Notes: generated from the letters alone by a model not told the origin. A stretch of 64,000 nucleotides of DNA from a virus (IMGVR_UViG_3300000439_000015:21208-85207); one strand, 5' to 3'. Counted from the stretch's first letter, positions 31,556 through 52,001 are shown. Numbers and translations are program-made.

Positions 31556-32371
31556 TTAGCGACCTTTCTCGTTGAGGTAAGACGTGTACAGGTCGGGGTT
31601 GCTCTGGGCGACAGACATCAGCGCAGCCTCGAACGAAGGAGCGGTACCGGCAGAAACAGCAGCCTTGGCAAGCGATTCCATCTTCGAGTAAGCGTCGTCG
31701 GTCATGACGGGAGCGTCCGAACCAACCTCAGTGAAAACAACGTTGGTTTCCACGAGGGCGTTAGCACTGTCGAGGGCCTTGACGATTTCGCCAGCGAGAA
31801 CGCCGTCGGATTCGGAAAGGCGACGAAGGGCAGGGCCAACAATCGTAGGGTCAATGTTGAGGTGCGACCAGCCAGCAGCCTTGATGACAGCAGCCTCATC
31901 AGCACGAGCCTCACGCTCGGCAATAAGGGCAGCCTCAGAAGCAGCAGCCTTGCGAAGGGCAGCCTCGGCGTTAGCCGAAGCCTCGTCCAGCATCTTGCGA
32001 ATAGCCTGTGGCATCGCCTTGATGATGTCAGCCTCGCTCGCAGCCTCAGGAACGATGACAACTTCGGTCATCTCTGAAACTTCAGACATAGTTTTCTCCT
32101 TGAAAACTTTGAGGGTTTCCAAAACAGCGTTCGCTGCCTTGGCGGTGTCCAGTAAAATCTCGTCTGCTTCGATTTCCTCAGCAGGCAACTCGGTTACCTC
32201 TTCAACAGGGGCAACTTCGTCCGAGACTTCAGTGGGACGGAGTTCGTCAAGCACCGCTTCAGCATCCGCAGGGCTTGCCGACTTCATTACTACCCAACCA
32301 TCGTGCAGGTGCGCAGGGTGGTCAACACCCGACGTTTCCTTGATGCTCAGTTTCACAAGTTTGCGAGCCAT
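31556..32371 (-). CDS. Capsid scaffolding protein
   Basis: N-terminal IKETSGVDHPAH...VVMKSA motif, acidic linker, helical C-terminus ending ...NPDLYTSYLNEKGR; upstream of decoration and capsid genes. Confidence 0.8.
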   Translation of the reverse strand: MARKLVKLSIKETSGVDHPAHLHDGWVVMKSASPADAEAVLDELRPTEVSDEVAPVEEVTELPAEEIEADEILLDTAKAANAVLETLKVFKEKTMSEVSEMTEVVIVPEAASEADIIKAMPQAIRKMLDEASANAEAALRKAAASEAALIAEREARADEAAVIKAAGWSHLNIDPTIVGPALRRLSESDGVLAGEIVKALDSANALVETNVVFTEVGSDAPVMTDDAYSKMESLAKAAVSAGTAPSFEAALMSVAQSNPDLYTSYLNEKGR

Positions 32372-32428
32372 TCGCTTCTGCTTTCTACGACTTGACCAAA
32401 CGGGAACCCGTAGGTCTTGACATAGTGA

Positions 32429-32456
32429 ACAGTAGAGGCAGTTTTGGAAATGTCAA
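32429..32456 (-). promoter_or_regulatory. Late-type promoter for scaffold/capsid operon
   Basis: Minus strand TTGACA-TTTCCAAAA-ctgcctc-TACTGT. Confidence 0.6.
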
Positions 32457-32486
32457 GTGTCAAATACTTGACACGACGAAAGACGA

Positions 32487-33302
32487 CTAAAAGGGGTCGT
32501 CGGAGATGGTGGAATAGAGGGGGCAAATGTCCTTGAACGAGCACCACTTATCGCACAGATTGTTGGCGATTGGTGGGAAGTAGCCAGCGTTGTACCAGCC
32601 CTCAATCTTCGCCCACGCCTCTCGCACACGGCGCTCTGCGTATAGGACATCTTCGTCGGTGACATCAATCACCAGCGTCTTGCCGAACTGAACGTAGAGC
32701 AGTCGAATCTGCTTGGGGCGCTCTCCAAGAACTTGCTCACACAGGTAGGCGTAAATCTTGGCAGGTAGAATGGCTGCCGCTTTGTACTTGTCGGTAGGGA
32801 CTTTGCCAGTCTTGTAGTCCACAATCACCAACGAGCCGTCAGGGTCACGGTCTAAGCGGTCTAGGATGCCACGGAGCGTCCATCCGCCCATGTCTACGTC
32901 CATCTTGATTTCGATGCCCTCTGAGGTGATTTCCTCTGGGTTCTCCATCGTGAAGTAGGTGCGGATGTACTTGGCGAGGTCACGGGCGAACGTTTGCACG
33001 CCGACCTCATCGAGTTCCATTTCACCAGCAATCTCGTCGCTCACGAGCGTGGGGAATAACTCACGCATCACTTCGAGGGTGTAGTCGAGGGTGCGGAGTT
33101 CGGGTGTCTCGGTGGTTCGCAGGAACACGGTTTCCAGCACTTCGTGGAACACGGTGCCACGGTAAGTCGCCATCTTCTTCGCCTCTGGGAGACGCTCGAT
33201 GGTGGAATACTGATACTGACGTGGGCACGTCTCGATTTGGTTCACTCGGCTAGGTGATACGCCATAGGGCTTTTCGCCTAGATACACAGGAGCGCTCGAC
33301 AC
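32487..33302 (-). CDS. RecB-family PD-(D/E)XK exonuclease with probable Fe-S cysteines
   Basis: VSPSRVNQIETCP...GTVFH...LRGILDRLD...IVDYKTG...YAYL...LCDKWCSFKDICP. Confidence 0.9.
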   Translation of the reverse strand: MSSAPVYLGEKPYGVSPSRVNQIETCPRQYQYSTIERLPEAKKMATYRGTVFHEVLETVFLRTTETPELRTLDYTLEVMRELFPTLVSDEIAGEMELDEVGVQTFARDLAKYIRTYFTMENPEEITSEGIEIKMDVDMGGWTLRGILDRLDRDPDGSLVIVDYKTGKVPTDKYKAAAILPAKIYAYLCEQVLGERPKQIRLLYVQFGKTLVIDVTDEDVLYAERRVREAWAKIEGWYNAGYFPPIANNLCDKWCSFKDICPLYSTISDDPF

Positions 33303-33329
33303 GATGTCAACCTTATCAGTTGGGTGATG

Positions 33330-33602: not shown

Positions 33603-33603
33603 C

Positions 33604-33891: not shown

Positions 33892-33949
33892 AACACTCTC
33901 CTTGGTAGGGGGGTTGCCTAACTCTAGTGTATCACCACTATTTATGAAA

Positions 33950-34312: not shown

Positions 34313-34336
34313 TCACCACAGCGTAGCAGGGTTTAG

Positions 34337-34816
34337 TTATTCGGCGTGAGTGTTGGCAAGCATGCCAGTGGCGGTATCAGCATTGAAGGAAGCGATTGCC
34401 GCCCTCTGAGCCAAAGCCTGAGCCGCTGGGTCTTTCTCGTATGACGCTTGTCCGCCCAATGGGGCGATGTGGTCGAGAATGGCCTCGTGAGCCTGCGCTG
34501 CATCGAGGTGGGCCTGAATCGCACGGGTCGCACGCATGCGGTCACCGTTAGACATTTCACTGCTGTGCTTCAGAACCATGTTCTTGATTCCTTCGGCGGT
34601 GGTGCGGTGAATCTGGGCGAGGGGCTTGGTCAGGCCATTGGAGATGCCGATGCCACGAGCGAAGTTCTGGGCGTTGGTGGAAAGGAAGTGCGAACTGCTC
34701 ACGGCCTTTTCCATGTCTGCACCCGACTGCCACTGGTTGCCGTGGAAAGCGTGGCCCTTGACATCACCCTTAGCCAACTGTACCCACGCAATGATTTCGT
34801 TGTTCAGATTGTCCAT
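34337..34816 (-). CDS. GHxFxGNQ-motif cargo protein (EIxxW leader), Ala/His-rich
   Basis: MDNLNNEIIAWVQLAK-GDVKGHAFHGNQW... Confidence 0.75.
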   Translation of the reverse strand: MDNLNNEIIAWVQLAKGDVKGHAFHGNQWQSGADMEKAVSSSHFLSTNAQNFARGIGISNGLTKPLAQIHRTTAEGIKNMVLKHSSEMSNGDRMRATRAIQAHLDAAQAHEAILDHIAPLGGQASYEKDPAAQALAQRAAIASFNADTATGMLANTHAE

Positions 34817-35352
34817 TAGATACCTTCCGAGAAACTTCCAACGCCAGCGGCTTGCTCGGCGCTACGGACGTTGTTTTCAGCAGCATCAACCTTATCTTGT
34901 GCGTCACTCATACGTTGTCCCGTGGCGTGGGCTGGGTCGGCGTTGGTGATTGTGTCACGGTTCGCCTCAAAGTTTTTGGTGTCACGGGCTGCACTTGCCA
35001 AACCAGCGTGGGCGTTGGCTGCGCTTTCGTGGGCGGTGGCAACATCACGGAGTTTTCCAGCCATTGAGCCAGTCGCCTTGTCTGCCATTGCGTGGTACAT
35101 CTGGGCTTGCTGATTGTGCGAAGCGCTTTGCTGCGTTGAGGTGGCTTCAGCGTTGCGACCTGCGTTCATCATGTCGTTTGCACCCCAGCGGCCTGGGTCT
35201 ACACGACGGGCTGGCTGTGCTGAAGCGCCAGTCGGGATGCCGCCAGTGTGCTGGTTCCCATTGAAGGCATGGCCTGCGGTTTCGTACTTCAAGATTTCAC
35301 CAACCTTGGCCCAGTTTGGGGCAAGTGCGTCTGTTGAGAAAGGGTTTGTCAT
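34816..35352 (-). CDS. GHxFxGNQ-motif cargo protein (FSTDAL leader)
   Basis: MTNPFSTDALAPNWAKVGEILK-YETAGHAFNGNQHTGG... Confidence 0.75.
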   Translation of the reverse strand: MTNPFSTDALAPNWAKVGEILKYETAGHAFNGNQHTGGIPTGASAQPARRVDPGRWGANDMMNAGRNAEATSTQQSASHNQQAQMYHAMADKATGSMAGKLRDVATAHESAANAHAGLASAARDTKNFEANRDTITNADPAHATGQRMSDAQDKVDAAENNVRSAEQAAGVGSFSEGI

Positions 35353-35356
35353 TTGA

Positions 35357-36292
35357 TTACATTCCTTCGTCTGCGCCCGTGGCACTACCTAGGCGTTCGG
35401 CAACCATGCTGGCACCTCGTGCAAGCATGGTGTTGTCACGGAGAATAGGACTTGTTGAGCCGCTTGCGTGTTGTTCGGCAACCCAGTTGTGAAGTTCTGC
35501 GGCGTGGTCGTGGGCGGCGATTGCCGACTTCAGAGCGCCCTGCTTCTCAGGGTTAGTCTCCTTGGCAAGGGCGTTTTTCAGCACTTGGCTGGCAATGCCG
35601 TGCTCGAAGGCTGCTGCACGGTGGGCGTTGGCGATTTGTGCGCCAGTACCACCGTGCTGAACAAGGTCACGAGCGTGCGAGGCAGCCATGAGAGCAGACC
35701 AGCCAGCGCCGTCCCGTCGTACATGGTCAAAGCCCTTGTCGAAGGGGTTTGAGGCGTACTGATTGCCGTGAAACTCGTGGCCCTTTACGTCGCCCTTCGT
35801 CACAAAAGACTTTTCAGCACCAGAGAGGATGACGTTGCCGTCGGTCACGCCTGCATTGCGACCAGACGTTGCCTTCATGGTTGCATCGGCGGCTTTCAGG
35901 GTGTTTTCAGCACTGGGGTTGTCGGCAGCGGCGTAGTGTGCGGCTGCTGCGGCTTCGTGCAACTTGGCGGCACCCTCTTCCATTGCGTATGAACGCCCGT
36001 TGGGGTTGTGGTAACTGGCGACAAGTTGACGCAAGCGCCCTGCCTCTTCGAGGTGCATACGAGCCATGCGGTCATGGGCCATGGTAGAAACGGTTGGCGA
36101 CTTTTTGCCTGCGCTCGCTGCCATCTGCGACGCTCGGTCACGAAGTGAGTTCAGAGCATCCCGTGTTTCACCAGTGGAACGAGCCGTGTATTGGTTCCCG
36201 TTGAAAGCATGGCCTGCCAACTCGTACTTCAGGATTTCACTGGCGGACTTCCAAACTGGAACCAGTGCGTCAGTAGAGAAGGGGTTTGTCAT
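35357..36292 (-). CDS. Two-unit GHxFxGNQ-motif cargo polyprotein
   Basis: MTNPFSTDALVPVWKSASEILK-YELAGHAFNGNQYT... plus internal FVTK-GDVKGHEFHGNQY. Confidence 0.75.
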   Translation of the reverse strand: MTNPFSTDALVPVWKSASEILKYELAGHAFNGNQYTARSTGETRDALNSLRDRASQMAASAGKKSPTVSTMAHDRMARMHLEEAGRLRQLVASYHNPNGRSYAMEEGAAKLHEAAAAAHYAAADNPSAENTLKAADATMKATSGRNAGVTDGNVILSGAEKSFVTKGDVKGHEFHGNQYASNPFDKGFDHVRRDGAGWSALMAASHARDLVQHGGTGAQIANAHRAAAFEHGIASQVLKNALAKETNPEKQGALKSAIAAHDHAAELHNWVAEQHASGSTSPILRDNTMLARGASMVAERLGSATGADEGM

Positions 36293-36302: not shown

Positions 36303-36734
36303 TCACTTTGGCAGGTCAGCGTTGCCGTAGTGGTTTACCGCAGCCATTGTCTGGTTTACTGCCTTGGAAGCGTCTGTCGCTACGTTCTTGTTGCTGTAGT
36401 CCGCAACCTTGGCCCACGTCTTTTGAGCAGCGAGGTGCGCTTGGGCGAGGGCGTTCAGGTTGCCAGCAACGTCTTTGTAGCCAGTTTCGTTTCGTGCTGC
36501 CATTGCTTTGGCTGCTTCACCACGGTGGTACTCCGCCATGCCCAAAGCGTCTGCACGGTTTGGTGCACCGCCAATACGGTCACTGCCAACTTTGGCTGCT
36601 CGTCGCACAATGTTGTCCGTTCTGCCCGAAGTGAACTGGTTGCCGTGAAAGGGGTGACCATCAACGTCGCCTTTAGCCACGGGGTAGCGAGAGAGTGACT
36701 TGAGTAGTTCGTCGGTGTGGAAGCCAGATGACAC
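36303..36734 (-). CDS. GHxFxGNQ-motif cargo protein
   Basis: MSSGFHTDELLKSLSRYPVAK-GDVDGHPFHGNQFT... Confidence 0.75.
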   Translation of the reverse strand: MSSGFHTDELLKSLSRYPVAKGDVDGHPFHGNQFTSGRTDNIVRRAAKVGSDRIGGAPNRADALGMAEYHRGEAAKAMAARNETGYKDVAGNLNALAQAHLAAQKTWAKVADYSNKNVATDASKAVNQTMAAVNHYGNADLPK

Positions 36735-36916: not shown

Positions 36917-37414
36917 TTATTGGGGCCTGTTTGCGTCCCAAAGTGAGGTGAAATGGCCTCGCTCCGCTTCGCCAATGTGCTCCAAGAGCAGGTATCCATC
37001 GAGATGGTCTGTCTCGTGCTGAAAGATGCGAGCGAGCAATCCTTCCCCGTCAATCCTGTACTGGTTCCCGTCAAGGTCAAGGGCCGTCAAGGTCGCTTTG
37101 TACGAGCGGCTGATTTGCCACCCGAACTTGGGCACCGACAAGCATCCTTCGGGCGTGACCTCGATGTCAAGGGGGTCAGTGAAAACCTCTGGGTTGATGG
37201 CGACGTGAGCGCCCGTGCCGTCGCCGCTGTCCCAAACGAACATGCGGTGCGAGTAGCCGATTTGGTTGGCGGCAAGCCCAACACCGAGGTGAAAGTACAT
37301 GGCCTCAACCATCTCGGCGGCAATCATCTTGATGTTGTCTGTGATTTCACTGACCGAGGTCGTGGGGGCTTCCAAAATGGGGTCGCCATAGAAACGCAGG
37401 GCTGGGATGTTCAT
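36917..37414 (-). CDS. def: Peptide deformylase
   Basis: All three PDF motifs present: GVGLAANQIG, EGCLS, HETDHLDG. Confidence 0.95.
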   Translation of the reverse strand: MNIPALRFYGDPILEAPTTSVSEITDNIKMIAAEMVEAMYFHLGVGLAANQIGYSHRMFVWDSGDGTGAHVAINPEVFTDPLDIEVTPEGCLSVPKFGWQISRSYKATLTALDLDGNQYRIDGEGLLARIFQHETDHLDGYLLLEHIGEAERGHFTSLWDANRPQ

Positions 37415-37677
37415 CGTGCGCCCATCTCTCTCTTTGCCTCTTCGAGCAGTTCGGCGGTGAAGTCCTCTGGCGACAGTTCGGTCTTGGCGTGGGCCATCAA
37501 CTTGCCGCAAGCGATGCTGAACGCCCATGTGTACAGGCTGAGTTCCTCGTCGAGGTGCGTCAACTCCTTGCGGTAGCCGAGAACCATCTGGTCGTGCTTG
37601 GCAATCAGCCCTGCCGTCCCAGTGCGCATGGTAGCCAACTTCTCTTCGAGGTCGGCAATCTGCTCCGACTTACGCAC
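37411..37677 (-). CDS. Hypothetical coiled-coil protein
   Basis: 88 aa; overlaps neighbours by 4-8 nt. Confidence 0.6.
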   Translation of the reverse strand: MRKSEQIADLEEKLATMRTGTAGLIAKHDQMVLGYRKELTHLDEELSLYTWAFSIACGKLMAHAKTELSPEDFTAELLEEAKREMGAR

Positions 37678-39295: not shown

Positions 39296-40885
39296 CTATT
39301 TGTAGACCTCGTTCAGCACTTGATAGTGGATTTGGCTTGCCTTGTCGTCGTCGCCTGCCTCGTGCGCCTCTTGCTCTTGGGCGAGCAGTTTGGCAGCCTT
39401 GTCGCTGAGGTGTTCTTCCTTGGGCTTCGTTGCCTTTTGGAACGGGAGCAGGGCGTACTTGGCCCAGATTTCGCCAGCGGTTTTGGAAACGTCGCCTTTT
39501 TGGACTGGGCTTTCCCAAACAACTGCGTCGGGGTTCCAGATTGAGTAGTTCGTGTGGTCTTTGGGCTGCGAAATGTCTTGTTGTGAAACTAGGGTCATCT
39601 TGCCATCTACGTTTGCGGTCTTTCCATCCTCTTCGTTGGTTAGGCCGCTTGTAAATAACTTCGCTCCATCTCTAAGTTTCCCACGGAGTACGGTTCCGCC
39701 CTCACCAGCGTAGGCACGAGCGACTTCTTCGCTATCGGTTGCGTAAACTGCTTTTCCGTCTAGACCGATTTCTTTCTTGCCGCTTAGGGTATCCGAGACT
39801 GCTTGCGAACTTCTTACGCCTCGATAAACGGTTACTCCACTTGCGTCAGTCGTTTCCCACTGATTTCCGTGAAAGACGTGGCCCTGAACGTCGCCCTTTT
39901 GGACGTGCCGCTCTACCATGGACTTCGCCCACGAGTAGCCAGCATCACCACCCCACGCATCCCACGCCACACGTCCGTGCGACGGGTATCCGTGTTCACC
40001 CTGACGGAAGCCTTCTGCCTTCTTGTCGGGCTGGTGACGGTCAAAATACGCCTTCATCCGCTTCAGAGTGTCCAGTGAAATCTGGTGCCCGTTACCGAGG
40101 TCTGACGCACGCTTGCGCCCGACGTTGGTGAACCCTGAGCCAGCCTTGCCGTCGGCAATCCATTCCAATGCTCGCTTAGCGGCCTCTTGTACCCCCTGCG
40201 GCGGAGTGAACGTATCCTTCTTCACCGCAAAGTGGGCAGCGAGGGTTTGGAACACGTCAATAAGGCGGTTCAAGTTGTCAATCATCTGGGCGTACTTGTC
40301 GTCCATGCCGAGTTGGTGAAACTCATCCTGTAGCGCCTCTAGACGGGGCCGTAAGCCTGCCAGCGTCTCCAAGGTCAGTCCTGCGTTCCAAAGGGCTGTG
40401 GCGACCTCTGGGGTGGCTTCACGGACACGAAAGTTGCAGAGAGCGTGGTCAATGCCGACTATTCCACCTTGGGCAAACATCAGGTTCTTGGGACGACGGT
40501 CTGCGTTGGCGGTGATGTAGTCGAACAGGCGTAGGTTTCTGCCTTGGTTATCGTTTGGGTAGCAGTCCTCGCTGCCGAGTTCCAATCCTGACTTGCCGTC
40601 AATGTACGGCATAATCACCATCTTGGCATCGGTTCCCACAAAGCGGCAGTCACGGACGGGGGCGTTCATCGCCTCTCCGACACGGGCGGCGAGATACTCC
40701 TGAGCGGCGAGTATTTCAGCACGGTACAAACGACCCGTCTTGTTGCCGTGCCAGTCCTTCATGTGCTTCTCGACCCCTTCGGAGCCATCAGCAAAGCGAA
40801 CACGGAACATTCCGTCGTTCTGGTTGCCCTTCACAAACATGGGTTCACGAGACACGATGTCCGTGCTGGTGAACGGCACGAACAT
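39296..40885 (-). CDS. Polyvalent cargo protein: HipA/PI3K-like kinase + conserved phage head-associated domain + GHxFxGNQ + ADP-ribosyltransferase-like domain
   Basis: EYLAARVGEAM...FDYITANADRRPKNL...GIDHAL (kinase); PPQGVQEAAKRALEW...AWDAWGGDAGYSWA; VQK-GDVQGHVFHGNQW; VYRG...GKAVYATDSEEVARAYA...YSIWNP (ART-like). Confidence 0.8.
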   Translation of the reverse strand: MFVPFTSTDIVSREPMFVKGNQNDGMFRVRFADGSEGVEKHMKDWHGNKTGRLYRAEILAAQEYLAARVGEAMNAPVRDCRFVGTDAKMVIMPYIDGKSGLELGSEDCYPNDNQGRNLRLFDYITANADRRPKNLMFAQGGIVGIDHALCNFRVREATPEVATALWNAGLTLETLAGLRPRLEALQDEFHQLGMDDKYAQMIDNLNRLIDVFQTLAAHFAVKKDTFTPPQGVQEAAKRALEWIADGKAGSGFTNVGRKRASDLGNGHQISLDTLKRMKAYFDRHQPDKKAEGFRQGEHGYPSHGRVAWDAWGGDAGYSWAKSMVERHVQKGDVQGHVFHGNQWETTDASGVTVYRGVRSSQAVSDTLSGKKEIGLDGKAVYATDSEEVARAYAGEGGTVLRGKLRDGAKLFTSGLTNEEDGKTANVDGKMTLVSQQDISQPKDHTNYSIWNPDAVVWESPVQKGDVSKTAGEIWAKYALLPFQKATKPKEEHLSDKAAKLLAQEQEAHEAGDDDKASQIHYQVLNEVYK

Positions 40886-42513: not shown

Positions 42514-43233
42514 CTACGAGTTTACCGTAGGGTTTGCGAGTATCCCGATTTCGCACATGCAGTCGGGGTGAAATGGCGGCAGGTCTGCGTCGCTTGTGAC
42601 GGGCAGTCCGTCTTGAGCCTGACACTCTGGGCAAGCGCCATCAGCAGCGATGATTTGCATCTGAGCGCCGTTGGCTTGGAGTGTGTTCCTTACGCCGAGG
42701 TTGAATCCACGGTTCGCCTCTGTGTTGGCAATCATCATGGCTCGATGTTCGGCGGCTATTTCAGCAACCACTGCCGCCATAATCGCCGCTTTGCCCAACT
42801 TGTTCTTCATGCCGTTGGTGATGGCACCTGCGGCTAAGAGCATGGTTGTGTCGCCAATCCCTGACGCAATCTTGGCGGCTATGGGATTCATTTCACCAGA
42901 TGCGGCTCGTGCGGCGAGCATTGTTCCAATACCGAGGGCAAGGAGTGCGCCTGCGTGCTTCTCGGCGGCTTGCTGAACGTCTTGGTACATACCGCCGATG
43001 GTTGATGTCACAGGGGTGTTGTTTACTTGTAGGGCGGATGCTGGGTCGCCGCCGTTCTGGGCGAGCGCAATGGCTGCTGATACGCCGACAATGCTCTCTG
43101 CGAGGGCCTTCTTGACTTTGGCCTTGTGCTTCTTGGATGCCGCTACGACGGCTGGGTTGCCCTTTTCCTTTGTGGCGGTTTTGCCCTTGGCAAACTCAAT
43201 CCACTCTAGGATTTCACTGTCCGTGATGGACAT
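42514..43233 (-). CDS. MuF-like (phage Mu gpF / SPP1 gp7) head morphogenesis protein, short form
   Basis: RAMMIANTEANRGFNLG...ACPECQAQDG...LPPFHPDCMCEI; N-terminal MSITDSEILEWIEFAKG leader. Confidence 0.85.
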   Translation of the reverse strand: MSITDSEILEWIEFAKGKTATKEKGNPAVVAASKKHKAKVKKALAESIVGVSAAIALAQNGGDPASALQVNNTPVTSTIGGMYQDVQQAAEKHAGALLALGIGTMLAARAASGEMNPIAAKIASGIGDTTMLLAAGAITNGMKNKLGKAAIMAAVVAEIAAEHRAMMIANTEANRGFNLGVRNTLQANGAQMQIIAADGACPECQAQDGLPVTSDADLPPFHPDCMCEIGILANPTVNS

Positions 43234-43235: not shown

Positions 43236-44069
43236 CTACTCCGCAGAAGGCTTGGAGTAAGTTCCGCCCCGACGCTTGTATTCCTGAACAACCCAGCCAT
43301 TAGCAACTGCTGAAGGGTAGACATCAAACTTCTTTTGTGCGTCTGCCTTGACTTGGTTGTAGAGGTCTTGGTCGTCTGGCTCGCCCTTGCGGTCAGAAAT
43401 CAACTTCGTGTAATCAGGCTCGTCGTCTGCCTTAGAAATCGGAACCCCAGCGGCGACTTGCGAGGCGGCTGAAGCCGTGCTTGCGTTTGCGGCTATGTTG
43501 GTTCGGTTTCCCGAACGGGCGAAATCCCCTGCTTGCTTTGAGGCACTATCATGCGCCAACGCTGCTTGGAAATGAAGTTGGCTTACCAATCCGTTTGTTT
43601 TATCCGCCAAATCAAAGTGCGCCCTTGCAAGTTCAGCGTGTTTACCGGCTATGTCTTGCAAGTTGTGTACTTTATTGGGGTCTGCGTCAGGCGTATTTTG
43701 GACTTTTGACGCAAAGTTAGCAAGGTCTTTTGCTTTGGAAGCAACGTCTTTGGCTTGTTCGTAATCTTCTTGGTTGGCGTACTGGTTTCCCCGAAATGGG
43801 TGACCTGAAAAGTCGCCCTTAGCGATTTCACCAGAAGCGTGTCCCGTAGGCGCACCCGTAGCGTCAATGTGACGTAGTTGGCAGAACCCTTCGGGGTTGT
43901 CAATGTGCTTTCCAGCAATCGCTACGCAAGCGGCAAAGTCGCCTTCGCCGCCCCAGTTGATTTGACCATCGGCACCGTTGTTGTACCAGTCAATCAAGCC
44001 CTGAGCGTTGCCTGCTTTGTGGATTTCCACCTCACGGGCATACTTGACCCAAGAAAGAATGTCAGACAC
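43236..44069 (-). CDS. Three-unit cargo polyprotein (phage head-associated domain + GHxFxGNQ Ala/His unit + DUF5872-like domain)
   Basis: IHK-AGNAQGLIDWY...WGGEGDFAACV...FCQLRH; IAK-GDFSGHPFRGNQY; ISK-ADD...LYNQVKADAQKKFDVYPSAVANGWVVQEYKRRGGTY. Confidence 0.75.
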   Translation of the reverse strand: MSDILSWVKYAREVEIHKAGNAQGLIDWYNNGADGQINWGGEGDFAACVAIAGKHIDNPEGFCQLRHIDATGAPTGHASGEIAKGDFSGHPFRGNQYANQEDYEQAKDVASKAKDLANFASKVQNTPDADPNKVHNLQDIAGKHAELARAHFDLADKTNGLVSQLHFQAALAHDSASKQAGDFARSGNRTNIAANASTASAASQVAAGVPISKADDEPDYTKLISDRKGEPDDQDLYNQVKADAQKKFDVYPSAVANGWVVQEYKRRGGTYSKPSAE

Positions 44070-44092: not shown

Positions 44093-44452
44093 TTACTTCT
44101 GTAAGCCAAAGTGGTTAGTGTACTTTTCAGCAAAGTCACTTTGCGTTTGAGCGATACTGTCGCCCTTTTCCCAAGCGTCTCTAGCAGCAGCGTGTGCTGA
44201 AGCGGCTTTGTAGGCAATGTTTGACCCCGTAATGTCGCCACGCTTATCAGCCTTGCGAGCCTCTACAACCAAGCGGTTGATTTCGCTCTGGTGATACTGC
44301 GCCTTTGGGTTGGAATAGCGTGTCTTAGCCTCGCCAAATCCAGCGGCTTCGGTGTACTGATTTCCATGGAAAGCGTGTCCAGCCACATCACCCTTAGCGA
44401 CGTGGTAGATACCTTGTCCTGCGAGCAGGGCTTCGGTACTGAAATCAGTCAC
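44093..44452 (-). CDS. GHxFxGNQ-motif cargo protein
   Basis: MTDFSTEALLAGQGIYHVAK-GDVAGHAFHGNQYT... Confidence 0.75.
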   Translation of the reverse strand: MTDFSTEALLAGQGIYHVAKGDVAGHAFHGNQYTEAAGFGEAKTRYSNPKAQYHQSEINRLVVEARKADKRGDITGSNIAYKAASAHAAARDAWEKGDSIAQTQSDFAEKYTNHFGLQK

Positions 44453-44454
44453 GA

Positions 44455-45858
44455 TTACCGCCCAGCGGCAGCAGCGGTGTCGGCAGCGTAAGCAGCGTCA
44501 TTCAAGCGAACAACCTCGCCCTCAGCCTGAGCCTTTTCACCGTTGTACAATGAACGGGCCTTGTCAGAGAACTCGGCAACCTTGGACTGCGATGCGTCAC
44601 GGGAGCCACGGTCAGTTTCCTTCTGAAAGGTGTTCTGAATGCCCTTCAGAGCGCCGTGAGCCTTCTGAAAGTGACCAGCGGCTTCTTCGTGCTTGGCAGC
44701 AGCATCGTGCAACTTTCCAGCGGCTTCAAGAGCCTTGGCCTCGGCTACGGCCTTGCGTCCGTTGGCGAGGTGGGTGTCGTGAGCGCCCTGATAACGAGAA
44801 ACGGTCTGCTTCCAGCCTTCACGCTTGCCAGCCATTTCACCACGACTAAAGGTACGCATACCGCCGGTGTGCTGGTTGCCCTCGAAGGGGTGGCCTGGCT
44901 GGGCACCTGAGCGGCCCTTGACACCGTACTTCTCAACCGAGAAGATGTACTCCTGATAGCCAACGGACTTTTGGAACGGGCGGGTCAGCAACTCGTCGGT
45001 TCCGAAGCGGTTAGAGGCGCTAGGCGTGTATGCCTTCTCAATGCCAATCATGTCGTGACCATCACAGGTGGGGCAGCCCTCGTTGGCGTCGAAGCCGAGG
45101 CAGTCGGGGCAGAGAATAACGTCGTACTGAGCATCAAAGTCGGCGTTGGTCTGATTGGCACCCATGGGAGCGCCGAGGTCGGCTGCGTAGGTGTAACCAT
45201 TGGAATCGGTGGGCATGGAAGCGTCCTTTCGGAGAACTGACTTGTTGGTGGGCACTGCGGTGGAAAGCGAAGGTTCCGCCTGCCATGAATCGGGCAAAGC
45301 GTCGGTAGCGCCGAGAGCCTTAGCCTGAGTAATGATGTGCGCCTTGACCGCCTTGGGGTCAGAAGCACGCCCGTAAGACTGAACAGCGTTTTCAAGGTCA
45401 GCACGGGTTTCGATTGGGTACGAACCGTCAGGCATGGCCTTGCCCTTCGAGGCAAGTTCCTGACGCTTGTCGTCCGAGAAGTCACGCTTCAAGATTTCAC
45501 CGTTAGAGGCGGCACGGATGCCAGCAAGGGCGCTCTTAGCAAGGTTCAGTGCTTCAGAAGCGGCCTGTGCAGCCTTGTCAGCGTCACGGTACTCGGCAAT
45601 GGCGTTGTTGTATCCAGTGCGCAGTTGTTCTTTGTTCCAAACCGACTTGGTGATGCTCTCACGGTAGGCAAGTTCGGCAACACGAAGCGTCTCCGTCGCC
45701 TTAGCGAGGCGGAAGTCAGCGTTGTCCTTTTCACCACGAGCGGCAGTCTCGGCAAGAGCCATCTTGCCAATCTGCGACTTGGCAATCTCGGTGGTGTTGT
45801 TGGTCACCGACTGGGAAAAGGAGACAGTCTTTGGTGTGTTGCTAGGAACCTGAATCAT
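44455..45858 (-). CDS. Multi-unit cargo polyprotein (coiled coil + DUF6582-like + CxxC Zn finger + GHxFxGNQ unit)
   Basis: ILK-RDFSDDKRQELASKGKAMPDGSYPI...LPDSW; CPDC...CPTC; internal RFGTDELL...VEK-YGVKGRSGAQPGHPFEGNQHTGG. Confidence 0.75.
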   Translation of the reverse strand: MIQVPSNTPKTVSFSQSVTNNTTEIAKSQIGKMALAETAARGEKDNADFRLAKATETLRVAELAYRESITKSVWNKEQLRTGYNNAIAEYRDADKAAQAASEALNLAKSALAGIRAASNGEILKRDFSDDKRQELASKGKAMPDGSYPIETRADLENAVQSYGRASDPKAVKAHIITQAKALGATDALPDSWQAEPSLSTAVPTNKSVLRKDASMPTDSNGYTYAADLGAPMGANQTNADFDAQYDVILCPDCLGFDANEGCPTCDGHDMIGIEKAYTPSASNRFGTDELLTRPFQKSVGYQEYIFSVEKYGVKGRSGAQPGHPFEGNQHTGGMRTFSRGEMAGKREGWKQTVSRYQGAHDTHLANGRKAVAEAKALEAAGKLHDAAAKHEEAAGHFQKAHGALKGIQNTFQKETDRGSRDASQSKVAEFSDKARSLYNGEKAQAEGEVVRLNDAAYAADTAAAAGR

Positions 45859-45916: not shown

Positions 45917-46921
45917 TTACTCTTCGCCGTCGGGGTAGGCGATGGCGTACAGAGGGTGGTTAGGCAACAGGTAGCCCTCAGGGGTGGTGTCAGGCTCACC
46001 CTCGAAGTCGTCCTCAGTTGACATGTCCAGCGGCGTGACGGCTGGGTAGTCAGCGTCGGGGTCGCTGTCGCTGTAGTCGGGGCCAGAGTAATCGTGCGAC
46101 GTGTAGTCGTTCATCATCTCTTCAGGGGCAGCCTTAGCGATGCCACCGTTCATTCCAGCAGCCAGAGCAGCCTGACGCAGGTAAGCGTGGGCGGTCTGGT
46201 AAGCGTCGCATGCCATCAGCGCCATCTGCATAGCGGTGGTGGTGTCGCCGTTCTGGTAAGCCTGAGCCGACTGCATCTTGTAGTTGTCACCAGCATCAGC
46301 AGCCTTCTCAGCGGCAATCACGAGGTCGTCCAAGTTGGAATCGCTTGACGATGGGGTGGAATCACTCGACGAGGACGATGAGGAACTGCTGCTCGACGAC
46401 GAAGAGGACGAACTGTCGTCATCACCACTGCCGTCAAACATGAAGCCAGCGTCCTTCTGCATTGAGGCGACGTGCATGGCGTGGTTGTTTGCCTCGACGT
46501 AGTTCTTGTTGCCAGCGTGGGCATCAGCAATAATCTTGGCACTGTTGGCCTGAGCCTCGGCAATGTGCTTAGCCGATTCCGAACGCTCTTCGGCGGTCTT
46601 GGTGGAATCGTTGGCGTGAATCGAAGCGTCATGGGCGGCGTGCATCGGGCCACTGCGGTGGGCATCGGCAGCAAGCGAGTGCAGTTCCGAGGCACGGTTG
46701 TGGGCATCAGCAGCGCCAAGGAAGAAGGAAGCGGCACGGGTGTCGCCAGTTGCGCCTGCGGCGTTGGTCATTGCATCAGCAACGTCGGCGTGCATGGCAG
46801 CGAGGTCGTCGTGATTGGAAGCCTCGGCCTCGTGGTCAACGGTGTCAACCTTGAAGGGTTCGGTGACGGCAGCAGCCTTGGTGAGCCACTGGGCGATTTC
46901 GTTGTTGATGTTGTCTGACAT
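45917..46921 (-). CDS. EIxxW-leader Ala/His-rich acidic protein with poly-Ser linker
   Basis: MSDNINNEIAQWLTK-AA...HDDLAAMH...AADAHNRASELH...poly-S. Confidence 0.7.
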   Translation of the reverse strand: MSDNINNEIAQWLTKAAAVTEPFKVDTVDHEAEASNHDDLAAMHADVADAMTNAAGATGDTRAASFFLGAADAHNRASELHSLAADAHRSGPMHAAHDASIHANDSTKTAEERSESAKHIAEAQANSAKIIADAHAGNKNYVEANNHAMHVASMQKDAGFMFDGSGDDDSSSSSSSSSSSSSSSSSDSTPSSSDSNLDDLVIAAEKAADAGDNYKMQSAQAYQNGDTTTAMQMALMACDAYQTAHAYLRQAALAAGMNGGIAKAAPEEMMNDYTSHDYSGPDYSDSDPDADYPAVTPLDMSTEDDFEGEPDTTPEGYLLPNHPLYAIAYPDGEE

Positions 46922-46931: not shown

Positions 46932-47393
46932 TTATCCTTGGAGTGAGACGGACAACTGCCACGCCCACTTGTTGTGATTGTCAATGCGGTCTGCGAGGAA
47001 GTTTGCGATTCCCTGCTGATTTGCTTGTGTTGCTAAGGCAAATGCCTTATTCAGGCTTGTGAGAACACCTGCGTTTGTTTCGGCAAGAGAGGCTACCAAC
47101 TTCTCGTGGTGATAGCCACTCACTGCGTCGTCCGATACAGAAGCCATGCGAGCCAAGTCCGTCAAGCGGAACGGAGCGAACATGCCCAACTTGCGCAGGT
47201 TCTCAGCCATTGGGTCGAGGGATTCATACACGTCCGTGTAGATTTCCTCGAACTTGGCGTGATACTGGGGGAAGTCGGTGCCGACTACGTTCCAGTGAAA
47301 TCCGTGAGTTCGGTGGTACATCACGGTTGCGTCGGCAAGACAAGTGGCGAGGGCCACCGTCAAGTCTTGCGTCGCATCCTTAGTGATGTCCAT
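46932..47393 (-). CDS. dps: Dps / DNA-binding ferritin-like protein
   Basis: YHRTHGFHWNVVGTDFPQYHAKFEEIY...DPMAENLRKLG...IANFLADRIDNHNKWAWQL. Confidence 0.93.
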   Translation of the reverse strand: MDITKDATQDLTVALATCLADATVMYHRTHGFHWNVVGTDFPQYHAKFEEIYTDVYESLDPMAENLRKLGMFAPFRLTDLARMASVSDDAVSGYHHEKLVASLAETNAGVLTSLNKAFALATQANQQGIANFLADRIDNHNKWAWQLSVSLQG

Positions 47394-47404: not shown

Positions 47405-48025
47405 TTACGCAACGTTTGGCGTAGCGATTTGGTTGTTAGCGGCCCCAGAAACACCTGAGAGGGCGTTCGACATGCGTGCGGCCTGAAGTCCGTTGTTGAG
47501 GGTAGATACGGCGGTAGCGGCACGGCTGGCACTGGCGTGCAGTTCGGCGGCATCGCCAGCGGCCTTCATGATTGCACGAGGTGATGCGCCGGTGGCACGC
47601 AACTTCGACAGAACACGCAGGGCGTGACCGGCACGTCCAGCCTCATCACCAGCGTGGTGGGCGGCGTATTCGAGGGTCTTAGCCTGCTGGTGTATTGAGC
47701 GGTCATTGCGGTTCTTGCCGTCGCTGAACTTCGTCTGGGCGGCCTTACCAGCGTGGTAAGCGGCCTCGTTGAAGTGGTAGCGAGCAAGGCTGTGGTTGCC
47801 GTTGGTGTGTGCAGCCAAGGCAGCAGCGAGGTGGGAGTTGGCTGCGTTCAGGTGGTCGTTGCGTCCGTAGTTCTTTTCACCACGAGGATTGTGCGCCATG
47901 GCGTTCTGAATGCCGCCAGTGTTGCCGTTTCCACGGAAAGGGTGACCCATCTCCGGCCCAGAGCCTCGCCCGCCCTTTTCAAGAGTAAGGAGCCATTCTT
48001 GAATGGCGTTGGTGTTGTCGGTCAT
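47405..48025 (-). CDS. GH-motif cargo protein, Ala/His-rich
   Basis: MTDNTNAIQEWLLTLEK-GGRGSGPEMGHPFRGNGNTGG... Confidence 0.7.
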   Translation of the reverse strand: MTDNTNAIQEWLLTLEKGGRGSGPEMGHPFRGNGNTGGIQNAMAHNPRGEKNYGRNDHLNAANSHLAAALAAHTNGNHSLARYHFNEAAYHAGKAAQTKFSDGKNRNDRSIHQQAKTLEYAAHHAGDEAGRAGHALRVLSKLRATGASPRAIMKAAGDAAELHASASRAATAVSTLNNGLQAARMSNALSGVSGAANNQIATPNVA

Positions 48026-48102: not shown

Positions 48103-48582
48103 TTACCCTGCGAGCGCCCGTGCGGTTCTTTCATCCGCCAACTGCGACCTCGTGACCGCAATGACACTGGCTCCGTTGGCGTAATCACCAGCGGTAATAC
48201 GGTTTTCGTGGTTCTTTGCGGTGGTCAGGTGTACTCCGGCAGCGCCTTCGTGTGCTGTTGCTGCTTCTTCTAGAAGTTTTGCCTTTTCCGGTTTGGCAGT
48301 GGTGGCTAGTTCCCGTAGCGCCTTCGCTTGTTCGGCGTGCTGGGCAGAGAGTTCACGGTGCCCCTGTGCACTTGGGTTTTTAGCAAGTTCCTGCGCCCGT
48401 GGAGCAAGCGAGCCGAAGCGACCCGACACTTGGTAGCGGTCTGAGGGTGCTGATGAGCCTGCGCCCTCAGCGTCCGTGTGTTGGTTCCCATGGAAAAGGT
48501 GACCGAAGAAGTCCTTTTCCAATGCTTCCTCGGCCTTGGCAAACTGCACCCATTGCAGGATTTCACTGTCGAGGTTTGACAC
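48103..48582 (-). CDS. GHxFxGNQ-motif cargo protein (EIxxW leader), Ala/His-rich
   Basis: MSNLDSEILQWVQFAK-AEEALEK-DFFGHLFHGNQHT... Confidence 0.75.
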   Translation of the reverse strand: MSNLDSEILQWVQFAKAEEALEKDFFGHLFHGNQHTDAEGAGSSAPSDRYQVSGRFGSLAPRAQELAKNPSAQGHRELSAQHAEQAKALRELATTAKPEKAKLLEEAATAHEGAAGVHLTTAKNHENRITAGDYANGASVIAVTRSQLADERTARALAG

Positions 48583-48590
48583 GATAACCC

Positions 48591-49034
48591 TTAGTTACCG
48601 AACGGTACGTTGACGTACATGCCAGCACGGTATGCGGCATCGCCAATGTCCTCAGCGTGGATGCCCTCTTCTTGACCCTTGATGGTCGTGGTGCCAGAAC
48701 GTGTGTAGGTGCGCTGAACGGTGTAGGTGTCGTTGGGGTGGAGAAGAACGTTTACGCCGTAGCCACGGCTGACGGGAAGGTTCACTCCGACGGTGCGACC
48801 ACCCGAATCACGGAGCGTGTTGACACGTCCGCCAGAGATGCCCAAGATGTTCATTCTACCAATCTGACCAACGGTCTGATTAGCGTCCATCTCACGGAAG
48901 CCGTCGAAGTGAGCGCCAGAGTTTCCGCCCGTGTACTGATTTCCGTTGAAGGCGTGTCCAGCCAACTCGTACTTCGTGACGGCGTAGATTCCCTGACCTT
49001 CAAGCAATGATTCGATGGTGAAAGGATTGTTCAT
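48591..49034 (-). CDS. GHxFxGNQ-motif cargo protein with beta-rich payload
   Basis: MNNPFTIESLLEGQGIYAVTK-YELAGHAFNGNQYTGG...QIGRMNILGISGGR...VNVLLHPNDTYTVQR. Confidence 0.75.
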   Translation of the reverse strand: MNNPFTIESLLEGQGIYAVTKYELAGHAFNGNQYTGGNSGAHFDGFREMDANQTVGQIGRMNILGISGGRVNTLRDSGGRTVGVNLPVSRGYGVNVLLHPNDTYTVQRTYTRSGTTTIKGQEEGIHAEDIGDAAYRAGMYVNVPFGN

Positions 49035-50038
49035 TAGTTTCCGTTCGCCCGTCCGCCCAAGCCCATGGGGTTGTTGGATGCCATAGCAGCAACGTGTGAC
49101 AACGCCTCGGCTTGGTCAAGTTGCGCCGTCTTGTCGGCTGCGGCGTAGGGGGTCTTGCCATCAGCAATGTCTTGGTACGCCTTAGCAGCAGCGAAGTGGC
49201 TTGCGGCGGCGAGTTGAGCACCACGGATGCCATCCTTCACCATCTGACTGTCTTGGTGTCCGCCAGCCTGAGCCTGACGAACCATCTCATTCAGTTCGTT
49301 GCCAAGTTGAGCGTGGCGGTCTGCCATCAGCCTGTAGTTGTCCTGAACGGGGGCGCTATTGCGAATACGGGTGGCGAGTTGGGCCGTCGCCAAGGCACGA
49401 GCGGCGTGGGAGTACTGGTTCCCATGAAACTCGTGGCCCATGACATCGCCCTTGGCAACAGACTTCTTGCCCTTGCAGTCGGGGCAAGTAACGTTTCCAC
49501 CACGAATGGTTCCCTTACCCTTGCAAAGTTTGCAGTCGGCAGCCTTGTTCACCTCATTAGCGGCAGCGGCAGCGTCATGGAAGTCCGCAGCCTTCTGCGC
49601 CATCTTCCATTCAGTTGAGGCAGGTAGAACGACGTTCCTACCGCCACGGCCCTGACCGATGTAGGTGGTCTTGCCGTAGGTGTGCGACTGCGCCTCACGG
49701 TAAGCATCAGCAGCACGGTAGTGTTCGCCCGAACGGGCAAGTTCGTCCGCTTTCAGTGCGGCGAGGGCGGCTGGGCTTTGGATGTGAGCGCCGACGGGAA
49801 CTTCCTTCTGACCGAGGATGCGAGTGGTCAGGGGGCTATTGCCCTTCATTCCACCTTTTACCCACGCTTCGTGGCTCTGGTTGCGAGGCGGGCCTCCGCC
49901 TGCAACCGCCGCACCGCCACGGGATGCTCCCGATGCGCTCGTGTACTGGTTTCCATTGAACGCATGACCTTCAGTCTCATACTTGGCAACCACTGCCTTT
50001 TCAAGCCACGAGGTGATTTCATCGTTGATGTCGGTCAT
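49034..50038 (-). CDS. Two-unit GHxFxGNQ cargo polyprotein with DnaJ-type Zn finger
   Basis: MTDINDEITSWLEK-AVVAK-YETEGHAFNGNQYT; CKLCKGKG...CPDCKGK; VAK-GDVMGHEFHGNQYS. Confidence 0.75.
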   Translation of the reverse strand: MTDINDEITSWLEKAVVAKYETEGHAFNGNQYTSASGASRGGAAVAGGGPPRNQSHEAWVKGGMKGNSPLTTRILGQKEVPVGAHIQSPAALAALKADELARSGEHYRAADAYREAQSHTYGKTTYIGQGRGGRNVVLPASTEWKMAQKAADFHDAAAAANEVNKAADCKLCKGKGTIRGGNVTCPDCKGKKSVAKGDVMGHEFHGNQYSHAARALATAQLATRIRNSAPVQDNYRLMADRHAQLGNELNEMVRQAQAGGHQDSQMVKDGIRGAQLAAASHFAAAKAYQDIADGKTPYAAADKTAQLDQAEALSHVAAMASNNPMGLGGRANGN

Positions 50039-50046
50039 GGTGCTCC

Positions 50047-50343
50047 TTAGATTTCTGTGTAAGCAACGGTGGTTGAGCCAGAGGCGGTGATGGCGTAAAT
50101 GGCACCTGTGTAGGTTTGGAACGTAGTTGACTGACCAGCCGACAAAACGATGCCGCTGCCAGCCGTAGCGACGGTACTCAGTGAAATCGTGACTGTGTTG
50201 GAGCCAGTGTTGGTCAGGAATACCTGCAAACGGTTGACATTCGCTGGACGGATAAGCGTTCCGCCGACGGGGGTTGCTGATACCGATACCGAACCATTGC
50301 CTGCGTAAGCCTGCGAGAGGTTATTGGAAATGTGTGAAGGCAT
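50047..50343 (-). CDS. Small beta-sandwich putative virion protein
   Basis: NRLQVFLTNTGSNTVTISL...GIVLSAGQSTTF...GAIYAIT. Confidence 0.6.
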   Translation of the reverse strand: MPSHISNNLSQAYAGNGSVSVSATPVGGTLIRPANVNRLQVFLTNTGSNTVTISLSTVATAGSGIVLSAGQSTTFQTYTGAIYAITASGSTTVAYTEI

Positions 50344-52001
50344 TAGTTGCTCCCTAGGAATGGCTTGGGGTCGTCGTACTCGGTGGGCAGGTCAACGTTT
50401 ACGCCAGAACCCGTACCGCCGATGCTGAACCCACGAATCTTGCCCTTCTTGACAAGTTCCCAAGCCCATGGCTCCCAGATAACGCCGAGGAATGAGGTGC
50501 CAGCAGGGAAGGTCGTCTTGACAACGGTGTTGCTATCGGCCTTCAACATGGGGATTTCCACCTCGTAGGGCCACGTCATAGCCTCGACCCACTTGCCAGC
50601 CACGATGTCTACGTTGTGCTGAAGTCGAATGTCACGGTCTGCGTTCTCAACGTAGTCCCAGAGGGCCTTTTGGATTTCTTCGGGGTCAGTCCACTCGTTG
50701 TGAGCGTCCATGCGATTTGGAACGTACCAAGGGGCAAGCGTGAATCGCTTTTCGTCGTTCTTGCGGATTGCGCCAATCATTTCACCAAACTCTTCAGACT
50801 TCTGAAGAAGGTTGGCATCCTGCATGACTTCGGGGTTCACCATTTCTGGCGCTTCTTCCTCGATGACGGTCATGTTTTCAGGAACAACCTTGGGTTTCTT
50901 CTTGCCTGCGTAGAAGGCACCGATTCCACCACCGTTGTCCGAACCGTCAACGTGTACGGCTTCAACGCTGGGGCCGTCCATCTTCTCCACGCTGGTGCGG
51001 CCCTTCTTGTACAGAATGCCGACGGCGGTGGAGTGGGCATCGAGCGCAGGAACGACGTTGAACTTGCACCAACCGTTGGACACGCACGAGATGGCAACCC
51101 AGTCGCAGCCGTTTTCACCAGAGGCGATGCAGTTTCCGCACGTCATGCCCTGAGCAAGGTACGGCGAGAAGTCGGTGTAGGCAGCGTCCGTTGTGGGGAT
51201 GCGACCTAGTTCCTCAACCATGTCGTCTAAGGCTTCAGCAAGTTCAACCTGCCATGGGTCGAGGCCGTCCTTCCAATCCTCACCGTGGATTTCACTAGAC
51301 GAAGAAGAACTCGACGACGTGCTTGATGAGGAAGAACTGCTTGACGATGACGAACTGCTGCTGGATGACGAGGATGACGAAGAGGAACTCGAACTTTCCT
51401 CAGTGTCGTCTGAACTGTCGCTGGTGGAATCGTCGTTTTGTTCGCCCTGAACCGCTTGAAGAATGGCGGCAACCGTGTTGGGGTCAAGTTGTTCTACCTG
51501 AACGGAGTTGTCGGTGGCAGTCTCAACAGGAGCAGGCTGAGCGAACACGGGGGTGGGTGCCATGAAAGAAAGGGGGAAGTTGATGGCCTTGTCAATGGGG
51601 CTACACACGTCTTGTTCCACCACAGAACCGCAGACCACACATGGGTTTACCCCATCAAATGAGTTCTGGCTTTTGGTGAAGGGGTGCTCTACGTCGGCAA
51701 GGCCCTTGGCAATGTTGCGAGAAATAAGGCGCTGCTCGGCTTCGGCATCAATGGCCTTTTCACCAAACACTCGCTTGGAAAGACGCTCCCACAAGGGATT
51801 ATTCTCTTTGGCGTTTGGAACGAGAACGATGGAAACGCCCTCTTCACCAGACTTGTTGACCGACATAAGGTCGGCAGAGGTGTACCCGTCCTGAGCAAGG
51901 TCGGCTGCGCCCTGTCGCACCTCAAATGCAACGGACTTGTTCGCAATGATTTCACTCAACGAGACGTTGGCGACCACATCAAGAATGTTTACTTGTTCCA
52001 C
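50343..52001 (-). CDS. Prohead (capsid maturation) protease, XkdF/Peptidase_S78-like, with long acidic N-terminal extension
   Basis: C-terminal KRFTLAPWYVPNRMDAHNEW...IQKA...IRLQHN...FLGVIWEPWAWELVKKGKIRGFSIGG; directly downstream of portal. Confidence 0.88.
   Translation of the reverse strand: MEQVNILDVVANVSLSEIIANKSVAFEVRQGAADLAQDGYTSADLMSVNKSGEEGVSIVLVPNAKENNPLWERLSKRVFGEKAIDAEAEQRLISRNIAKGLADVEHPFTKSQNSFDGVNPCVVCGSVVEQDVCSPIDKAINFPLSFMAPTPVFAQPAPVETATDNSVQVEQLDPNTVAAILQAVQGEQNDDSTSDSSDDTEESSSSSSSSSSSSSSSSSSSSSSSSSTSSSSSSSSEIHGEDWKDGLDPWQVELAEALDDMVEELGRIPTTDAAYTDFSPYLAQGMTCGNCIASGENGCDWVAISCVSNGWCKFNVVPALDAHSTAVGILYKKGRTSVEKMDGPSVEAVHVDGSDNGGGIGAFYAGKKKPKVVPENMTVIEEEAPEMVNPEVMQDANLLQKSEEFGEMIGAIRKNDEKRFTLAPWYVPNRMDAHNEWTDPEEIQKALWDYVENADRDIRLQHNVDIVAGKWVEAMTWPYEVEIPMLKADSNTVVKTTFPAGTSFLGVIWEPWAWELVKKGKIRGFSIGGTGSGVNVDLPTEYDDPKPFLGSN

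Follow-up and report, generated by a model that had tools for sequence, protein, structure and literature searches.

In bacteriophage T4, internal proteins of the head carry a capsid-targeting sequence that is removed by the prohead protease gp21 at (Ile/Leu)-x-Glu (PMC12991175; PMC10052503). Here we describe a comparable arrangement in an uncultured phage, in a stretch of 64,000 nucleotides (IMGVR_UViG_3300000439_000015:21208-85207, hereafter the window) that makes up bases 21208-85207 of one IMG/VR virus record of 85,207 bp, whose completeness is 68% according to CheckV. In the head module of this phage, short N-terminal leaders end in hydrophobic-x-Lys (phi-x-K) and are followed by a conserved tag, and the same site lies between the modules of long open reading frames (ORFs). 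On balance, we favour the view that the serine head-maturation protease of the phage, which is of the XkdF type (S78_2), recognises phi-x-K followed by G, A, S or D and cuts there.

As in T4, the short N-terminal leader is found on several unrelated head-module proteins and ends in hydrophobic-x-P1, a motif that is met again within scaffold proteins and within the protease. The differences are that P1 is Lys and not Glu, that the protease is of the S78_2 (XkdF) type and not of the gp21 type, that an invariant block of 13 residues (GDxxGHxFxGNQ) follows the site and would remain on the product, that the site also joins modules within long ORFs, and that the present system is known from sequence alone. 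Since the protease belongs to S78_2 and phi-x-E is not enriched (see below), the system would be T4-like in its working and is not a member of the T4-type system. The principle would be a T4-like targeting leader with a head-protease site, varied by Lys at P1, an S78_2 enzyme, a retained tag and polyprotein-like ORFs.

Three other systems are close. In HK97, the prohead protease gp4 cuts the capsid protein gp5 at K103/S104 (PMC10275583), where the sequence of gp5 reads T-F-N-K103/S104. This site lies in an unstructured stretch and shares with ours a hydrophobic P3, a Lys at P1 and a small P1'; however, the HK97 substrate is the capsid protein's own scaffold domain and not cargo, and the capsid protein of our phage has no propeptide. 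In the giant phages SPN3US and phiKZ, the protease gp245 strips propeptides from ejection proteins (PMC10052503). This resembles our proposal in that a short consensus marks the processing site of many ejection proteins inside the head, that propeptides receive multiple cuts and that the protease also acts on its own chain, but the cleavage consensus is another one, most propeptides measure 111-254 amino acids (aa), these myoviruses exceed 200 kb and no conserved tag after the site is reported. Finally, Iyer et al. 2017 (PMC5512222) describe the polyvalent proteins of phages and conjugative elements as multi-domain effectors linked to portal, MuF and head genes, with assemblin-like peptidases at the C-termini of polyvalent proteins. 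The ORF at 39296-40885, which joins a kinase-like domain, phrog_2859 and further modules, resembles them, and homologues of its middle domain are fused to portal, MuF and other domains. In contrast, that work proposes processing mainly by zincin-like metallopeptidases, and a term search of the paper returned neither a GNQ tag nor a description of a Lys junction. No zincin-like metallopeptidase turned up in Pfam scans of the proteins of our phage's head cassette, which included no specific search for one.

Results

A leader and a tag shared by unrelated head-module proteins

An earlier note on this DNA had pointed to VQK-GD and IAK-GD as sites of Lys-specific processing. These sites are real, but they had been described without the longer element whose front end they form, namely a leader followed by phi-x-K-[GY]-[DE]-x-x-G-H-x-F-x-G-N-Q-[YWHF]. 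We observed 16 copies of the tag in the window, on the minus strand between 34730 and 49990, and in 16 of 16 P3 is V, I or L and P1 is K. Eleven of them lie 11-33 residues from the N-terminus behind a leader, and five are internal. The leaders are of two types, M-x-D-N-[IL]-N-x-E-I-x-x-W... and M-x-x-(P)F-[ST]-T-[DE]-x-L-L..., which together are present on at least 14 ORFs of unrelated head-module proteins.

To survey other viruses, the back-translated pattern KGDxxGHxFxGNQ, in which P3 is left unspecified, was compared with IMG/VR. It matches at least 119 stretches, many of which hold 3-10 copies, up to 10 or more, whereas the number of matches expected by chance, estimated from the degeneracy of the pattern and the size of the collection, is well under one. 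Among the matches listed, P3 is hydrophobic in 80 of 81 N-terminal and in 115 of 121 internal copies of the tag, P2 and P4-P10 are variable (10-35% hydrophobic), Arg never replaces the P1 Lys, and no N-terminal tag is found without a leader, whose length is 14-21 aa in 94 viral cases. Within the tag, G, H, F, G, N and Q are invariant, and conservation runs 13 residues past the Lys. That P3 and P1 are conserved while the sequence ahead of the tag is otherwise unrelated fits the subsite preference of a protease, with the (Ile/Leu)-x-Glu of T4 as a model. A literature search for the tag returned nothing relevant.

The junctions of the window, all on the minus strand, are the following (a slash follows the Lys). 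The leader-tag junctions LAK16/GDVKGHAFHGNQW and ILK33/YETAGHAFNGNQH lie at 34730-34777 in ORF 34337-34816 and at 35248-35295 in ORF 34816-35385, respectively. ORF 35357-36292 has an N-terminal junction, ILK22/YELAGHAFNGNQY (36188-36235), and an internal one, VTK166/GDVKGHEFHGNQY (35756-35803); the module that comes after VTK166 shares 73% identity with stand-alone proteins of two other contigs (L043 and L063) that bear the tag at their N-terminus. Further junctions are VAK21/GDVDGHPFHGNQF (36633-36680, ORF 36303-36734), VLK11/YELPGHKFNGNQW (41795-41842, ORF 40886-41866), VAK20/GDVAGHAFHGNQY (44354-44401, ORF 44093-44452) and ITK14/GDLKGHVFRGNQH (42432-42479, ORF 42114-42512), and the body of this last protein shares 55% identity with an internal module, the third, of a 791-aa ORF present in three contigs (L014, L050 and L051). 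Internal junctions are also found at 39857-39904 (VQK330/GDVQGHVFHGNQW, ORF 39296-40885), at 43779-43826 (IAK84/GDFSGHPFRGNQY, ORF 43236-44069) and, in a variant form, at 44869-44937 (VEK/YGVKGRSGAQPGHPFEGNQH, ORF 44455-45858). Towards the protease gene follow the variant junction LEK17/GGRGSGPEMGHPFRGNGN (47921-47983, ORF 47405-48025), then LEK23/DFFGHLFHGNQH (48478-48522, ORF 48103-48582) and VTK21/YELAGHAFNGNQY (48933-48980, ORF 48591-49034), and lastly the two junctions of ORF 49034-50038, VAK19/YETEGHAFNGNQY (49943-49990) and the internal VAK196/GDVMGHEFHGNQY (49412-49459), with homology breakpoints at residues 163-169 and 190.

A MuF-like protein (42514-43233, minus strand; weak match to PF04233, E 0.001) carries a leader of the first class ending in FAK16/GK but lacks the GHxFxGNQ tag; the two can therefore occur apart. 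Outside the window, at genome bases 2915-3310 (minus strand) and about 60 kb from the head cassette, lies a seventeenth tagged gene, LTK/GDLLGHIFHGNQY, which is a paralogue of 42114-42512. A partial match, FIGNQH at 54593, falls in an SSB protein (PF00436) and was dismissed as chance.

The sites coincide with the boundaries of modules

The three- to four-module ORF 39296-40885 (529 aa, minus strand) comprises a kinase-like part (residues 1-218), phrog_2859 (224-330), an unmodelled part (331-463) and a helical tail. Its homology breakpoints, obtained with 120 database homologues, fall at 222-226, 324-336 and 460 and match the sites AVKK223/D, VQK330/GD and VQK463/GD; the PHROG match itself spans 222-337. 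The AlphaFold model (mean predicted local distance difference test score, pLDDT, 73.5) shows a confident domain at 1-218, which a coil (219-229) connects to a helical domain (230-327); confidence is low from the tag on (K330 is in coil) and again at 479-488 around FQK484/AT. K223, K330, K463 and K484 are thus all placed in coil or low-pLDDT stretches between confident domains. Foldseek matches residues 1-218 to the kinases CtkA, Rio and HipT; according to the model this part folds like an atypical protein kinase and would be a candidate injected kinase. In the same model the first 20 residues belong to the kinase-like fold and do not form a free leader.

The phrog_2859 module (105 aa) occurs very frequently in metagenomes, placed after portals (PF04860), MuF, DUF5872, kinases and other domains, and the fusion partners of its homologues include portal (PF04860), MuF, Zeta-toxin, NUDIX and ParB domains. 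Of the 57 distinct contexts upstream of the module, 48 have phi-x-K 2-4 residues ahead of the first aromatic residue that is conserved in it. Two stand-alone forms begin with MADNT- or MPNNT-FTPP at the same point, without the Lys motif, and phi-x-K is therefore part of the junction and not of the fold.

The other two cargo ORFs in which sites had been named give a similar picture. In ORF 43236-44069 (277 aa, minus strand), which ends in a C-terminal DUF5872 domain and contains IHK18/AG, the tag site IAK84/GD and ISK213/AD, the edges of family matches (17-81 and from 231) and the breakpoints (74-82 and 203-217) fit K18, K84 and K213. ORF 44455-45858 (minus strand), studied by alignment and with an AlphaFold model, likely starts at the ATG at 45858 (the longest ORF extends to 45999). 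Its modules are a helical hairpin, the KR domain of 75 aa, a zinc ribbon, a variant tag with its internal leader, and a bundle of helices. Its four named sites, ILK/RD, IEK/AY, FQK/SV and VEK/YG, all lie in low-confidence linkers of the model. When it was aligned with 13 relatives, the site at the start of the 75-aa domain, ILK/RD, read phi-x-K-R in 11 of 11, FQK/S was kept in 5 of 5, and VEK/YG read phi-x-K/GGPGSGAQPGHPFxGNQ, whereas IEK/AY was not conserved. The 75-aa domain itself (KRxxSxxxRxxLAxxGKAxPDGSxPI...GRAK...HII) occurs at 45246-45488 of the window (minus strand), behind phi-x-K, and in another phage (L126:2059-2280, plus strand) it forms the C-terminus of the protease ORF itself.

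The same modules are found fused and free. Among 263 modules that follow a tag, 22 of the 147 internal ones have a stand-alone, N-terminally tagged homologue, and the similarity starts right after the tag. Single ORFs with up to seven tags exist.

The earlier note had placed the domain boundaries of cargo proteins at phi-x-K followed by a small or acidic residue. Breakpoints, family edges and AlphaFold linkers agree with this location, but IEK/AY lacks conservation and some matches of the motif are inside folds. In addition, P3 is Ala in ANK/SV of the protease ORF, and the P1' residues of ILK/RD and VEK/YG are neither small nor acidic. Each of the 14 sites that had been named for 39296, 43236, 44455 and the protease ORF was located there, at a single position.

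Hydrophobic-x-Lys sites are enriched in the head cassette

Enrichment of the motif [VILFM]-x-K-[AGSD] was measured in the 23 minus-strand ORFs of the head cassette (33.6-52.0 kb), with an expectation derived from per-protein shuffles. We counted 56 sites for 21.0 ± 4.4 expected (z 7.9), as against a z of 1.9 in the remaining 53 ORFs of the genome. In the cassette, z lay between -0.3 and 1.7 for control motifs in which P1 was R, E, Q or D, the hydrophobic residue was shifted by one position, or the order was reversed; phi-x-E-[AGSD] in particular is not enriched (24 sites for 21.9 expected).

The leader-tag element accounts for about two thirds of the excess. Indeed, the first 45 residues of the cassette proteins, which include the paralogous leaders, contain 19 sites for 3.8 expected. 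After removal of N-termini and tags, 33 sites remain for 16.3 expected (z 4.3); the bodies of tagged proteins have 21 for 12.0 (p 0.006) and the protease ORF has 8 for 2.2 (p 0.0005).

The closest cultured relatives are the cluster AL Arthrobacter phages (Laroye, Salgado) and the Microbacterium phage ValentiniPuff, whose protease domain is 54-69% identical and whose capsid protein is 48-52% identical to those of our phage. In these phages, too, blocks of unknown genes separate the gene of the protease from that of the capsid protein (PMC5513430), and in the genes of this interval phi-x-K-[AGSD] occurs at 1.8-2.6 times the expected frequency. No virion proteomics was found in PMC5513430.

The protease and the scaffold-like protein carry the motif

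The ORF at 50343-52001 (minus strand, 552 aa) was predicted to encode an XkdF-like protease in its C-terminal 150 residues or so, and this is confirmed by a match to PF14550 (Peptidase_S78_2, XkdF-type) at residues 413-531 (E 3.8e-12, 46.8 bits for a cut-off of 24); PHROG families of head maturation proteases match the ORF as well. Ten homologues, with identities as low as 28%, all keep His462 (LQHNV) and Ser526 (GFSIGG), which by analogy are probably the catalytic residues of this S78_2 protease. A search of PDB sequences with the protease profile found no relative, and a literature search on XkdF gave no specificity data.

Upstream of the catalytic domain, a long N-terminal extension bears Cys clusters and a poly-Ser tract of about 45 residues. 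The candidate self-cleavage site L-Q-K401/S-E (50796-50807, minus strand) is placed directly upstream of the catalytic domain, at the end of an indel-rich linker, and QDANL[LM]QK/S is kept in 4 of 6 full-length homologues. Within the extension, IAK99/G, FTK110/S and IDK138/A are kept in 5-6 of 6. The poly-Ser tract is at 51294-51425 of the window (residues 193-236); every full-length homologue has such a tract (30 to more than 100 residues), between the N-terminal Cys-rich region and a second Cys-rich domain. Another long poly-serine tract occurs at about 46364-46417 in ORF 45917-46921.

The acidic, helical, Ala/Glu-rich protein encoded by 31556-32371 (minus strand; phrog_13547) had been called a scaffold. 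This is plausible: the protein whose gene adjoins that of the capsid protein resembles a cement protein instead. The four sites listed for it were found in this ORF, and we count five, VMK30/SA, IIK118/AM, VIK164/AA, IVK198/AL and LAK235/AA, which are conserved in 9-11 of 11 homologues (42-97% identical). Its first 30 residues, KETSGVDHPAHLHDGWVVMK/SA (32284-32371, minus strand), are near-invariant down to 44% identity, far above the next 70 residues, and may represent a removable or interacting segment.

The motif also accompanies this protease family. Of 15 long tag-bearing records, 9 contain PF14550, as do 4 of 4 that are at least 90% complete, and 28 of the at least 119 short tag loci themselves contain the XkdF-like domain. 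Neither S78 of the HK97 type (PF04586) nor ClpP nor S49 was found in this genome or in four complete tag-bearing genomes. In a sample of phrog_2859 loci from IMG/VR, the phi-x-K junction was observed in 7 of 10 loci with the protease versus 5 of 18 without (Fisher p 0.05).

Discussion

A proposed Lys-directed head protease, and the alternatives

Several independent computational lines support in part the earlier proposal of Lys-specific polyprotein processing; we infer the cut itself, the enzyme responsible, packaging and ejection. In the mechanism that we propose, cargo would be made with the N-terminal leader of 14-21 aa, which by analogy with the T4 capsid-targeting sequence would carry it into the prohead, and the protease would join the prohead via its own long N-terminal extension. 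It would cleave after the Lys of each leader-tag junction and would cut the same junction inside multi-module ORFs, plus a few tag-less linkers (before phrog_2859 and before the 75-aa KR domain). The scaffold-like protein and the protease's own extension would be cut too, and a cut at LQK401/S would release the catalytic domain. The products would be separate modules, most of them starting with GDxxGHxFxGNQ, kept in the head and presumably exiting with the DNA.

A bolder form of this proposal can be put forward as a tentative possibility only. The element would be a portable code, such that any protein behind a leader and phi-x-K/GDxxGHxFxGNQ is loaded into the prohead and freed by the S78_2 protease; the ORFs with up to seven tags would be true polyproteins diced into injected effectors, kinase-like and others; and the retained GD..GNQ block would have a function of its own, for example docking to protease or scaffold, or as an exit signal.

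Several observations weigh against cleavage by the S78_2 protease. HK97, which offers a precedent for the site, uses a PF04586 protease that is absent here. The capsid protein was considered as a substrate with a matching trimmed N-terminus and was ruled out, since its sequence shows no N-terminal propeptide and no phi-x-K in the first 30 residues. The GHxFxGNQ tag is absent from ValentiniPuff, Ottawa and Salgado although they share the protease. Confidently folded elements of the AlphaFold models contain K19 of 39296 and K27, K53 and K108 of 44455, and cutting at such matches inside folded domains is unlikely. When the wider contig set is taken, the motif outside leaders and tags reaches 1.56 times the expectation, versus 1.35-1.45 times for controls; a general studding of cargo bodies with sites is therefore weak and is not counted as support. 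Moreover, the conservation of 13 residues after the Lys goes beyond the needs of a protease subsite and suits a docking peptide equally, so that docking has to be taken seriously as an alternative or as a further function, and the conservation of P3 and P1 alone would also be expected of a beta-strand epitope that is bound and left uncut.

The alternative that survives best is indeed docking without any cut. According to it, phi-x-K-[GY][DE]xxGHxFxGNQ binds in an extended form to a component of the head, for instance the portal, MuF, the scaffold-like protein or the protease extension, the ORFs stay intact and repeated copies add binding strength. The long conserved block with its invariant G, H, F, G, N and Q, the low pLDDT of the tag alone, as for a linear binding motif, and the alternation of conserved P3 and P1, which suits strand pairing, are all consistent with this. 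We nevertheless regard it as unlikely: tag-less junctions retain just phi-x-K and a small or acidic residue, stand-alone copies of phrog_2859 drop phi-x-K, the motif recurs in the scaffold-like protein and directly before the protease domain, modules swap between fused and free forms exactly at the tag, and the motif co-occurs with one protease family.

Processing of another kind appears improbable. The bond could be broken elsewhere in the element, for instance by Asn-dependent self-cleavage at GNQ, or a host protease or another phage protease could act; Asn, His and Asp are invariant in the tag, the link between enzyme and site is not direct, and the exclusion of other enzymes covered the common head-protease families only. 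However, tag-less junctions have phi-x-K but no GNQ, Arg is never at P1 among the matches listed, S78_2 is the sole recognisable head protease in the complete genomes, and enzymes of the HK97 type do cut phi-x-K/S. Least probable of all, to the point that we give it hardly any credence, is that phi-x-K has no function and that its enrichment reflects a leader-tag cassette duplicated among paralogues together with a Lys/Ala-rich helical composition: paralogous leaders and tags do hold most of the excess and the shuffle controls of the wider set rise above expectation without any signal, but P3 is hydrophobic in 95% of internal tags with unrelated upstream sequences, the Arg-P1 and reversed-motif controls are flat in this phage, the junction holds across portal, MuF, DUF5872 and kinase contexts, and protein bodies are still enriched.

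If cleavage at phi-x-K by the S78_2 protease is real, virion cargo could be read from sequence in a large, mostly uncultured group of phages, which takes in many metagenome proteins fused to portal or MuF as well as the at least 119 IMG/VR stretches. It would be the first predicted specificity for S78_2 head proteases and would account for the blocks of unknown genes between protease and capsid, here and in the cultured actinobacterial relatives. It would also give a concrete release mechanism for polyvalent proteins, unlike the metallopeptidase route proposed earlier, and the leader-tag would become a candidate means of bringing foreign proteins into capsids, a use already made of the T4 targeting sequence.

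Genome setting of the head module

The minus strand holds nearly all genes of the window. A Mu-type portal protein (52168-53802, minus strand; PF06074, E 1.7e-33; phrog_113) is encoded directly upstream of the protease ORF, and about 25 ORFs fill 33.6-50.0 kb, between the protease ORF and the gene of a PD-(D/E)XK/Cas4-like nuclease (32487-33302, minus strand). This nuclease, which is untagged, sits between the cargo cassette and the scaffold-like gene. The cement-like protein (30815-31552) adjoins the gene of the major capsid protein (29810-30796, minus strand; phrog_1005, E 1.5e-96). When 10 kb of the module were compared with the phage collection by megablast, no match was obtained.

Cargo genes do not make up the whole of the stretch: besides the nuclease, a ferritin/Dps-like protein (46932-47393, minus strand; PF00210, E 1.7e-15) lies inside the head cassette without leader or tag, as does an untagged peptide deformylase (36917-37528, minus strand; PF01327, E 1.9e-40), whose true start is probably an internal ATG near residue 39. 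At the left end, a 2,971-aa ORF occupies 1-6445 of the window (minus strand) and extends past it to genome base 18737. Further ORFs encode 1,617, 1,349 and 1,130 aa, and the last of these is collagen-like and matches tail-fibre families.

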